Shown: in pieces, positions 8,744 through 10,439 of the stretch
Layout: each line of letters begins with the position of its first letter
Numbering within the stretch: the stretch's first letter is position 1
UHGV virus genome: UHGV-0286042
Source: a virus
DNA: 14,049 nucleotides
Reading direction: 5' to 3' (one strand)
Made by a program: the position numbers and the translations under genes
Notes under the pieces: generated by a model
Seen by the model: only the letters and a program-made list of their open reading frames with translations
What the model was told of the DNA's origin: nothing
Database searches by the model: none

Positions 8744-9094
8744 ATGGGTAAGGCCAAACTTCTAATTTGTGGTGTTCTTTTATCAGTTGTCGGCACGTCA
8801 GAGGCCTTAGCTGATACTCAGTGCGGGCCGTATCGCCTCACTGCGGGCAAAGAAGGACTAATGCTTATTAACGGGGTAAAACCTGAAACGCAAAAAATGT
8901 CTTTTCTCAAGTCTAAAGATGACTACCAAAACATGAAAGCAGAATGGATGGTTGCAACCGACCAACCCGGCCGCTGGGTTGGGCTTGAGTACATCAAGCG
9001 CAACGGCAAAGCCATTCTCAACGCACAGTGGCTGCAAGCCAGCATGAATGCGCCGCGTCAGTATGCAACATACGACTGCGTGAAGGTGAAGTAG
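8744..9094 (+). CDS. moron-encoded small secreted (periplasmic) protein, function unknown
   Basis: ORF track 8684..9094; start chosen at ATG 8744 (MGKAKLLICGVLLSVVGTSEALA|DTQCG...) giving a classical Sec signal peptide with AxA-like cleavage site; mature protein about 93 aa with Cys near both termini; lower GC than flanking tail genes; no structural-gene resemblance. Confidence 0.55.
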   Translation: MGKAKLLICGVLLSVVGTSEALADTQCGPYRLTAGKEGLMLINGVKPETQKMSFLKSKDDYQNMKAEWMVATDQPGRWVGLEYIKRNGKAILNAQWLQASMNAPRQYATYDCVKVK

Positions 9095-9100
9095 GTATAA

Positions 9101-9126
9101 AGAAAAAGCGCCGGGTTGACCGGCGC
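9101..9126 (-). terminator. rho-independent terminator (hairpin GCGCCGG-GTTGA-CCGGCGC, T-run on the minus strand)
   Basis: 7-bp perfect GC-rich stem 9108-9114 / 9120-9126, followed on the minus strand by TTTTTCT (9107-9101); lies directly 3' of minus-strand ORF 9133..9483 and 3' of the + strand secreted-protein gene. Confidence 0.6.
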
Positions 9127-9132
9127 GCCAAG

Positions 9133-9483
9133 TTATTCCTCTTTGAAGCTGATGTTCTTGCACTGCTCCATTACTTCAATCAGTTCTTTTGACGTCAGGT
9201 TTTCTACTTCGATTTTACCTTTCTCTGTGGTCATTGTTATTTTTTTGGATGATCTGGTCTGTATCCATTTTCTTGCGATAGATGCAATGGCTATACAAGC
9301 TGGTGACGACGTGGCTACGATGATAGTTATGTCGACGAGCGTGCCAACCGCATTAATTGAGTCAGCAGTTCTGATTCGCCTGCGTATTTTATAGTCACTT
9401 TCAGGTATGTTATCCTGGATTACGGAGAGCAATTCTTTGCCTATTGCTGGAGTAAATTTTATGGTTGTTTCTGATTTTGGCAT
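9133..9483 (-). CDS. moron-encoded small membrane protein (single predicted TM helix, K/E-rich C-terminus), function unknown
   Basis: 116-aa ORF on the opposite strand to the whole tail operon, in a markedly AT-rich stretch where long ORFs are unlikely by chance; hydrophobic segment LVDITIIVATSSPACIAIASIA; own terminator at 9101-9126; weak RBS. Confidence 0.5.
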   Translation of the reverse strand: MPKSETTIKFTPAIGKELLSVIQDNIPESDYKIRRRIRTADSINAVGTLVDITIIVATSSPACIAIASIARKWIQTRSSKKITMTTEKGKIEVENLTSKELIEVMEQCKNISFKEE

Positions 9484-9622
9484 AAAGGTATCCGGCCCCT
9501 ATCGTGAGAAGCTAAAAATTGCCTTGCGGCTTTTCCTTGGCAGCCTGTATCTCGCTACAAACCACGACGTTACCGTAGTTTTAAGCAAGACCTACATTCA
9601 GGGCTGCAAAGAAGATAAATAG
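9461..9622 (+). CDS. candidate small ORF (53 aa), alternatively a non-coding leader or sRNA ending at the 9663-9687 terminator
   Basis: GGAG at 9449-9452, 8 nt upstream of ATG 9461; ORF overlaps the 5' end of the divergent minus-strand gene; followed about 40 nt later by a + strand intrinsic terminator. Confidence 0.25.
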   Translation: MVVSDFGIKVSGPYREKLKIALRLFLGSLYLATNHDVTVVLSKTYIQGCKEDK

Positions 9623-9662
9623 CACGGACAAATCAGCCTTCAAACCCTGACGTTTGATCAGT

Positions 9663-9687
9663 AACCCGCCGCCGAGCGGGTTTTTTT
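9663..9687 (+). terminator. rho-independent terminator on + strand (CCCGC-CGCCGA-GCGGG followed by TTTTTTT)
   Basis: 5-6 bp GC stem 9665-9669 / 9676-9680 followed by 7 consecutive T (9681-9687); sits inside the tail operon immediately upstream of the spike gene RBS. Confidence 0.6.
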
Positions 9688-9698
9688 ATGGAGTTTTT

Positions 9699-10439
9699 AT
9701 GCCAATTCCAACTCAATCACAGATCGGCGGAGAGCAGCAGACCGCGCAGGCCATTGCCGATTCGGTGTCTACCCAGATGCGCGTAGCGATGCCTGGCATC
9801 ATTCAGTCGTTCGATCCTGATACTGTTACCTGCACAGCAGAGGTGGCGCTTCGCGGTATTGTTGGCGACGGCTCCACCGAATTAAAACCGCTGGTGGATG
9901 TGCCGGTTATCTTTCCTCGCGGCGGTGGTTGCACGCTGACCTTTCCGGTAAAAGAAGGCGATGAGTGCCTGCTGATCTTTGCCGACCGTTGTATCGATTT
10001 CTGGTGGCAGAGCGGCGGCGTTCAGGAGACCGTCGACCCGCGCCAGCATGACTTATCTGATGCGTTCGCCATCGTTGGCCCGCAGTCGCAAGCGCAGAAA
10101 ATCAGCGGTATCAGTACCAGCGCCGCGCAGCTGCGAACCGATGATGGCTCGGCGTTCGTAGAGGTCGCAGCAGGGCATAACATCACCGTTAAAACGCCGG
10201 GCAAGCTTACGGCTACGGCTGAGGGTGGAACGACAATCACATCCCCGACTATCACGCTGAACGGCAACGTAACGATTAACGGTAACCTGTCTCAGGGAAT
10301 GGGAGAAAGTGGCGGTACTGCGACGATGCTTGGGCCGGTGACGGTAACGAATGACGTAACAGCTTCTGGTATCAGTGTCGCCACGCATAAACATGGCGGA
10401 GTACAGACTGGCGGGGGAACTACCGGAGGGCCGCAATAA
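9699..10439 (+). CDS. baseplate central spike protein (P2 gpV / Mu gp45-like)
   Basis: ORF track 9654..10439, but 9654 start would translate through the terminator hairpin; ATG 9699 has GGAG at 9690-9693; Gly/Thr-rich beta-helix-like C-terminus with HKH motif (ATHKHGGVQTGGG) typical of spike apex domains. Confidence 0.65.
   Translation: MPIPTQSQIGGEQQTAQAIADSVSTQMRVAMPGIIQSFDPDTVTCTAEVALRGIVGDGSTELKPLVDVPVIFPRGGGCTLTFPVKEGDECLLIFADRCIDFWWQSGGVQETVDPRQHDLSDAFAIVGPQSQAQKISGISTSAAQLRTDDGSAFVEVAAGHNITVKTPGKLTATAEGGTTITSPTITLNGNVTINGNLSQGMGESGGTATMLGPVTVTNDVTASGISVATHKHGGVQTGGGTTGGPQ

Follow-up and report, generated by a model that had tools for sequence, protein, structure and literature searches.

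Here we describe a small gene (positions 8744..9094, plus strand) of the virus genome UHGV-0286042, from which a stretch of 14,049 nucleotides was analyzed (the window, from here on). Its product, a protein of 116 amino acids that we call the barrel protein, is predicted to be exported and to fold into a small beta-barrel. The gene is a near-universal and positionally fixed component of one family of myophage tail modules, tightly coupled to the gene of the baseplate hub, and yet it is the most divergent gene of the module. The sequences appear as old alleles, each inherited together with the last codons of the hub gene, and they are in places stacked in tandem or fused to a lipoprotein domain that has a motif in common with the tape measure protein (TMP). 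The reading that we favor, although tentatively, is that the barrel is an allele-specific binding protein involved in conflict, most simply by excluding superinfecting phages when they penetrate the envelope or inject their DNA.

The window corresponds to the tail region of a temperate myophage, with the genes in the order sheath, tube, chaperone, TMP with a C-terminal SLT domain, Dit-like protein, plug (similar to Pam3 gp18), hub, barrel, gpV spike, gpW and gpJ. The hub gene (7678..8742, plus strand, 354 amino acids) was identified by its match to phrog_196, baseplate hub (E 4e-85), and by similarity to the Pam3 hub gp19 in the PDB (E 9e-9); the Pfam family PF22759 (E217_GP41) was found just under the cutoff. 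In order to know how constant the presence of the barrel gene is, we have used a sample of 80 viral contigs fetched through the hub protein, and 82 hub-related loci could be evaluated. A member of the barrel family was located directly after the hub in 79 of them (about 97% of modules), and in the remaining three (L052, L059 and L063) an unrelated lipoprotein fills the slot. The latter protein (about 7070-7795 in these loci) has 241 amino acids, a predicted lipobox (FLTSC) and several cysteines, and gave no Pfam match. The order plug-hub-barrel-(variable)-V-W was preserved in all 23 genome loci, belonging to at least 12 genera and with hub identities down to 52% (52-59%). A homolog is also found at the same position in the annotated phages SEN34, Mulock, ST340-VIM1phi10.1 and vB_EcoM-683R1. 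The spacing from the hub stop to the barrel start was mostly between -4 and +18 nt (67 loci), and the distance from the hub to gpV varied from 360 to 2426 bp, with the barrel as the sole gene between them in L084 and L086. Since the barrel gene is constant and the DNA after it varies from locus to locus, the barrel has to be considered the constant element of this region and the true morons are the genes that follow it. The original prediction had placed the gene in the tail operon of a prophage, and this placement can now be narrowed to the interval between hub and gpV, but the figures given above leave no room for an occasional prophage add-on.

The ATG of the barrel gene is located 1 nt past the stop codon of the hub (TAA, 8740-8742), with an AGG at -9..-7, and the frame is closed by a TAG (9092-9094). 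In the list of open reading frames it can be extended upstream to a TTG at 8684; however, the N-termini of the homologs align at the ATG, which has been taken as the start for this reason. The protein matched phrog_3443 with an E-value of 1.2e-45, residues 6-116 covering profile positions 5-114 of 115, and judged by this match it is a full-length member of PHROG 3443, a phage family with function unassigned. We have retrieved 80 homologs. Analysis of the codons of 55 unique alleles gave a proportion of synonymous differences (pS) of 0.71, i.e., saturated, a proportion of non-synonymous differences (pN) of 0.08-0.2 for the mature part and a dN/dS of about 0.12. Such saturated synonymous change together with low non-synonymous change indicates a genuine protein-coding gene under purifying selection.

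The first 23 residues (MGKAKLLICGVLLSVVGTSEALA, 8744..8812, plus strand) read as a signal peptide with predicted cleavage after A23, leaving DTQC as the start of the mature protein. All the elements expected of a Sec substrate of signal peptidase I (SPase I), i.e., a basic n-region, an h-region of about 10-15 residues and small residues at -3 and -1, can be recognized: the basic residues are K3 and K5, the hydrophobic core has approximately 12 residues (LLICGVLLSVVG) and the cleavage site is A21-L22-A23 followed by D24. The same n/h/c layout and AxA-type site were kept in 69 of 69 aligned homologs, although the sequence of the leader itself is unconserved. Along these lines, the codons of the signal peptide are relaxed (pN/pS 0.6-0.8 versus about 0.15-0.25 in the mature domain), which fits the evolutionary signature of a cleaved signal peptide. 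We predict then, from the sequence features and their conservation in the family, that the protein is exported by Sec through a cleavable leader, as was originally proposed. There is a cysteine within the h-region (Cys9, in LLIC), with Ile at -1 and only three hydrophobic residues ahead of it. LLIC does not agree with the lipobox [LVI][ASTVI][GAS]C that signal peptidase II (SPase II) would require, and Cys9 is unconserved among the homologs, so that for the window we predict a soluble protein without a lipid anchor.

The mature domain (93 amino acids, 8813..9091, plus strand) was modeled by AF2 with a pLDDT of about 90-95 as an eight-stranded beta-barrel, in which the N-terminal half (strands 1-4, about residues 24-55) is variable among the homologs and the C-terminal half is conserved. 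The mature part of every one of the 69 homologs has exactly two cysteines. These are Cys27 (codon 8822..8824, plus strand), on the first strand of the model, and Cys112 (codon 9077..9079, plus strand), on the last, and both are invariant in the close family as well as among 25 divergent members of the wider family, down to 25-30% identity. Besides them, only L92 is invariant throughout the family, with G28, N43 and D60 nearly so. The pair probably forms a disulfide that staples the barrel. The expectation of a mature protein of about 93 amino acids with a cysteine near each end was thus confirmed and extended to the whole family. As to the disulfide-stabilized fold that went with it, the model does predict a compact barrel with the cysteines on its first and last strands, which a bond between them could staple.

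The original prediction had also named a strong homology to a cytoplasmic or structural phage protein as the result that would speak against it. The only family found was PHROG 3443, whose function is unassigned, and the searches of Pfam, NCBIfam and PADLOC gave no match to the barrel protein. Comparison of the model with BFVD by Foldseek provided no match at E <= 0.001, an exhaustive profile search collected just 60 cluster representatives with no connection to a larger superfamily, and the barrel profile had no similarity to any of the tail proteins of the window. Literature searches did not find any paper describing the family, which is known only as an unannotated PHROG. A divergent subfamily, with the C-terminal motif VRTSxSQIRIxGxYDC, was found outside prophage tail modules in two loci, L089 (7001-7342, GCA_000773975.1) and L090 (7001-7339, GCA_026549045.1). 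One of these two copies comes after the gene of a predicted lipoprotein and has the hcp gene of a type VI secretion system (T6SS) about 1.4 kb downstream, and the other stands alone among housekeeping genes.

No other protein of the module diverges as much as the barrel, whose mean p-distance is 0.29 versus 0.03-0.13 for the structural proteins. A comparison of pS at the same loci is more informative, with values of 0.28 for the hub, 0.35 for gpV and 0.71 for the barrel. The saturated pS and low pN of the barrel, set against the lower pS of the backbone, imply that old functional alleles reside in much younger backbones. The alleles of 79 loci fall into 19 groups (at least 90% identity), freely combined with differing cargo genes. 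A way to locate the limits of the divergence is to follow the nucleotide identity along ten allele representatives. The identity is 0.94-0.99 through position 8691 and falls to 0.34-0.55 over 8692-8801, a region that comprises the last 16 or so codons of the hub and the signal peptide. It then rises along the barrel gene up to 0.83-0.86 at 9033-9092 and collapses past the stop codon. There is, therefore, a sharp-edged variable block formed by the hub tail, the leader and the N-terminal half of the barrel (strands 1-4). The C-terminal half would plausibly be a conserved scaffold, with the hypervariable N-terminal half setting the specificity. Variability of another kind was seen in gpV (9654-10439 in the window), of which the C-terminal 110 residues or so (pN about 0.2) are far more variable than the N-terminal part (pN about 0.03), whichever barrel allele is present.

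The hub portion of the variable block (GAREMVSQDTLKKWQV, 8692..8742, plus strand) is a hypervariable C-terminal tail of about 16 codons, at the start of which (8692) the identity drops from 0.97 to 0.55-0.40 and which goes together with the barrel allele in inheritance. The correspondence between tail types and barrel alleles is about 1:1 (adjusted mutual information 0.85, 93 hub/barrel pairs), and identical tail/barrel pairs recur in distant genomes and even inside one of the tandem arrays described below. In Mantel tests of 58 close relatives, the barrel covaried with the C-terminal 74 amino acids of the hub (r = 0.30, p = 0.001), and no covariation was detected with the first 280 hub residues, gpV or gpI. 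The hub sequence immediately before the tail (8602..8691, plus strand) forms an anchor in which the conservation of third codon positions reaches 0.92-0.96, versus 0.76-0.85 upstream. It holds a sigma-70-like pair of hexamers, TTTATA (8612-8617) and TATACT (8635-8640), separated by 17 nt and kept in 91/100 and 96/100 loci, respectively. This stretch could contain an internal promoter of the barrel gene or else serve to anchor recombination, and its conservation suits both roles alike. The barrel gene is probably co-transcribed with the hub and translationally coupled to it, and it may in addition have a promoter of its own inside the 3' end of the hub gene, to judge from the hexamers.

Two genomes carry several alleles side by side. 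In Pseudescherichia vulneris (L097, NZ_BBMZ01000043.1, 3-2849) there are four divergent barrel genes in tandem between hub and gpV, three of them intact. The first one comes after the complete hub, and each of the other three is preceded by a duplicate of the last 65 or so codons of the hub, each with a different tail. In Serratia aquatilis (L101, NZ_CP173186.1, 2686-7574) the same interval contains seven copies, of which six are intact, without hub fragments; their C-terminal halves are near-identical, as if homogenized, and their N-terminal halves are diversified. The retention of several intact and divergent copies argues that the alleles have an additive, specificity-dependent value.

Another conspicuous variant of the slot are the fusions, found in about 12 loci and 11 database clusters. 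These proteins (284-319 amino acids) consist of a lipoprotein signal, with LSGC or VSC lipoboxes, an all-alpha domain of about 170 amino acids and the barrel. The alpha domain occurs only together with the barrel and gave no structural or Pfam match. It contains the motif L..DDC.TW...GKSLI.W.GE.C, framed by two conserved cysteines, which is common to a segment of the TMP of the window located after a hydrophobic segment (LLYDDYQTWKEGGKSLIDWS, residues 328-347, 5480..5539, plus strand). Both are identical at 14 of 20 positions by BLASTP (pairwise E 1e-5), a match that was obtained repeatedly, and the profile of the fused domain, run on the six-frame translation of the window, matched only the TMP (20 bits, E 3e-6; the best of 2000 shuffled TMPs reached 5.3 bits). 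Within the TMP the motif DDYQTWKEGGKSLIDW is near-invariant, even where the hubs are about 57-61% identical, and it is kept in Mulock and ST340-VIM1phi10.1. The fusion of this cysteine-framed, juxtamembrane motif of the TMP to the barrel links the family to the penetration or channel-forming step of infection. With an unrelated lipoprotein in three loci and about 12 lipoprotein-barrel fusions in the same place, the barrel slot is, as far as the predicted signals indicate, a slot for envelope proteins. Regarding the TMP itself, that of the window (4499-6766) has 755 amino acids, compared to about 670 in L006, L007 and SEN34. A segment matching its residues 420-570 was recovered from just 23 fetched loci. 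This suggests that the stretch separating the hydrophobic segments from the SLT domain is variable or carries an insertion.

The reading of these data as a sign of conflict derives from several sides: the predicted location in the envelope, the fixed link with hub and spike, the replacement by lipoproteins or fusion to them, the old alleles maintained by purifying selection, the variable half displayed on a constant scaffold, the stacking of alleles and the fusion with the TMP motif. The action on the envelope or on an injection step that the original prediction had suggested is plausible, with indirect support from the lipoproteins that take the slot in three loci, the TMP motif of the fusions, the extreme diversity of the alleles and their tandem arrays. 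We propose that the barrel would be an ancestral and fixed accessory gene of one Enterobacterales temperate-myophage tail-module family. Its product would be exported by Sec and fold in the periplasm into the small eight-stranded barrel, where it would intercept some part of a related, superinfecting phage that reaches this compartment, be it the tip of the hub, the TMP or the spike. By acting during tail penetration, such an interception would block the delivery of the genome.

Periplasmic proteins and lipoproteins that exclude other phages are a known kind of phage product, including Llp/Cor, Spackle, Imm and Ltp. In T4 the tail lysozyme gp5 is inhibited by Spackle, a small protein that Sec exports to the periplasm, and the genes of both Imm and Spackle of this phage are early and located outside the tail operon. 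As proposed here for the barrel, they are phage-encoded envelope proteins that stop the superinfecting phage after adsorption; however, Imm is a helical protein of the inner membrane and Spackle is also helical, whereas the barrel is all-beta and has no homology to either. Imm has recently been reported to exclude superinfecting phages and block delivery by binding the TMP beside its transmembrane segment (bioRxiv 10.64898/2026.03.06.709160).

Several observations weigh against exclusion by the barrel and have kept our preference tentative. No homology to characterized exclusion proteins appeared in the profile, sequence or structure searches, and the barrel fold is, by structure comparison, a generic one. 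Coupled to a late tail operon, the gene would be expected to be expressed late in the lytic cycle, but an exclusion of the classical type requires the protein in the lysogen or early in infection, and the candidate internal promoter amounts to a consensus match with conserved synonymous sites, about 100 nt upstream. The divergent subfamily at chromosomal sites that are not prophages implies that the tie of the family to phage tails is not obligatory. Besides, the Mantel tests against the TMP segments, Dit, plug, gpV, gpW, gpJ, gpI and the tail fiber (nine loci for the latter) gave only weak background correlations. The sole partner that covaries with the barrel is the adjacent C-terminus of the hub, and physical adjacency alone can explain this pairing, which is thus no proof of interaction.

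The same pairing is at the center of a more specific proposal that we regard as improbable. According to it, the hypervariable tail of the hub and the N-terminal half of the barrel would be a cognate lock-and-key pair, i.e., a polymorphic system of self/non-self recognition housed in the tail operon. After contraction of the sheath the tip of the incoming hub would enter the periplasm, and a matching resident barrel would bind the hub tail and plug or stall the channel before the TMP and the DNA exit. The cassettes of hub tail and barrel would be swapped by recombination at the anchor (8602-8691) and the 3' half of the barrel gene, orphan arrays would accumulate and widen the range of exclusion, and the lipoprotein fusions would add a mimic of the TMP loop as a second decoy. 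The arrangement does recall the orphan 'CT plus immunity' arrays of contact-dependent inhibition (CDI), Rhs and bacteriocin loci, a comparison that draws on their general organization and concerns architecture only. A constant region joins a variable one at a sharp boundary, the variable C-terminus of the hub is paired with a downstream gene for a small exported protein, and displaced orphan copies of this unit, with divergent alleles, are stacked in P. vulneris. On the other hand, the upstream gene codes for a structural hub and not for a toxin, and the S. aquatilis array comes without hub fragments. No domain match and no evident toxic domain were found in the variable hub tail of about 15 amino acids; being so short and devoid of a toxin domain, it makes of CDI/Rhs an architectural analogy rather than a matter of membership.

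It is quite improbable, in our opinion, that the barrel is an immunity-like inhibitor of a peptidoglycan hydrolase, for which the C-terminal SLT (lytic transglycosylase) domain of the TMP of incoming phages would be the most obvious candidate. Such a role would recall that of Spackle toward the gp5 lysozyme of T4, or of PliC/MliC toward lysozymes. The likeness to the lysozyme inhibitors PliC/MliC, as that to avidin, streptavidin and calycin-like barrels, appears to be one of general eight-stranded topology only. There was no Pfam sequence match to MliC/PliC (PF09864) or to any other inhibitor family, PliC ranked far under generic barrels in the structure comparison, and the residues of the barrel that are invariant throughout the family are structural only. 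Furthermore, the SLT domain is conserved (mean p-distance 0.04), whereas the barrel is hypervariable, and the covariation between them is weak (r = 0.20).

We give only a slight probability to the binding of the barrel to the periplasmic face of an outer-membrane receptor, which would stop further adsorption or triggering in the way of Llp/Cor and was the first possibility named in the original prediction. The precedent is suggestive, since Llp of T5 works from within the periplasm and its gene adjoins that of the tail protein to which it is matched (PMC9586334). As predicted for the barrel, these are small phage proteins of the envelope, facing the periplasm, with an intramolecular disulfide and a gene next to a tail gene (PMC9586334). 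In addition, some barrel alleles are lipoprotein fusions and in three loci the slot is filled by another lipoprotein. However, there is no sequence similarity, and the window protein appears as a soluble mature domain of 93 amino acids and not as a lipoprotein of 61. Its gene is located beside hub and spike rather than beside the receptor-binding protein and fiber genes, and the barrel did not covary with gpI, with the C-terminal part of gpV or with the fiber (the latter in nine loci).

A moron-type protection of the host from periplasmic attack not due to phages (T6SS effectors, bacteriocins or tailocins), or some other lysogenic conversion with benefit for the host, is likewise unlikely in our view. 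The resemblance to the morons of lambdoid and HK97-like phages, such as lom, bor or HK97 gp15, is that of an accessory gene in a late structural operon, flanked by promoter-like and terminator-like signals. Morons, however, are sporadic, whereas the barrel is nearly always present and has diverged along with the module; sporadic presence is a feature of the cargo that comes after it.

We consider very unlikely that the protein is an avidin- or calycin-like barrel sequestering a small periplasmic ligand. The eight-stranded antiparallel barrel that characterizes avidin (PF01382) is indeed predicted by the model. Nevertheless, there was no Pfam match to avidin at E <= 0.1, ordinary avidins in the PDB gave an E of about 1, which is insignificant, and a match with an E of 0.006 was to a tandem construct with just 9.4 bits per single stretch. 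The biotin-binding residues of avidin are Asn, Ser, Tyr and Thr plus several Trp, a constellation that the few invariant and nearly invariant positions of the barrel do not reproduce. No other pocket-like constellation is conserved, and the hypervariability of half of the barrel does not fit a fixed ligand. Just as remote is a cytoplasmic assembly factor or a component of the virion, with a hydrophobic N-terminus that would be no signal peptide: the near-universal presence and the tight coupling to the hub within the tail operon would suit it, but not an N-terminus that keeps its character while its sequence changes, and that has an AxA site in practically every member, an invariant cysteine pair that suits an oxidizing compartment, a gene whose place an unrelated lipoprotein can take and which can also be joined to an upstream lipobox, extra copies that pile up in arrays, or a divergence 3-10 times that of the structural proteins.

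The region that follows the barrel gene (9095-9662 in the window, with its equivalents in loci L001-L088) is a hotspot of cargo genes, between 0 and about 2 kb long, whose contents differ by locus. In the window it contains an antisense gene (9133..9483, minus strand, 116 amino acids) that is EACC1-like, with a match at the cutoff to PF19953 (23.6 bits) and a weak PADLOC match to SngB; in E. coli genomes, PGAP gives the name EACC1 to a homolog. Cargo of this type (Effector Associated Constant Component 1) was present in 10 of the surveyed loci, antisense DUF4236 genes in 22 and a Fic/Doc toxin with a Phd-like antitoxin in 4. Other loci contained HEPN-like proteins with partners of 258-267 amino acids, Bro/KilA-type proteins, an HExxH protein and several small proteins with a signal peptide or transmembrane segments. 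The cargo genes and the barrel alleles are combined independently of each other. In the window, a GC-rich hairpin (9108..9126, minus strand) separates the barrel gene from the antisense gene and has a T-run on the minus strand only, which makes it look like the terminator of the latter. Another terminator-like hairpin, AACCCGCCGCCGAGCGGG plus a T-run (9663..9690, plus strand), marks the end of the variable region, some 10 nt ahead of the probable ATG of gpV. With its stem CCCGC/GCGGG and a variable loop, it was found at this place in at least 51 loci, SEN34, ST340-VIM1phi10.1 and distant phages among them. Such a hairpin would shield gpV from the transcription of the cargo, and late transcription would then need to read through it. 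The ATG of gpV at 9699, with a GGAG ahead, appears a likelier start than the listed TTG at 9654 because the latter would make the gene span the hairpin.

To our knowledge, several of the features found here are new: a barrel gene always present and yet hypervariable at the junction of hub and spike, a sharply bounded variable block that takes in the C-terminal tail of the hub itself, tandem arrays of alleles with displaced hub fragments, and the fusion of the barrel to a lipoprotein domain with a TMP motif. If the barrel is indeed an allele-specific exclusion factor, it would represent a family of anti-phage proteins of the periplasm that is new and of simple structure, made of a constant scaffold and a variable specificity half and widespread in the prophages of E. 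coli, Salmonella, Klebsiella, Serratia, Yersinia and Pantoea. It would also mean that a phage tail operon can house a cassette for polymorphic recognition, with alleles that are exchanged and stacked as in the toxin-immunity loci of bacteria. This would help to explain the patterns of cross-resistance among lysogens, which are relevant to phage therapy against Enterobacterales. Whatever the function of the barrel, the junction from hub to spike is a cargo hotspot (EACC1, DUF4236, Doc/Phd and others) and offers a defined place in which to seek new defense genes of prophages.

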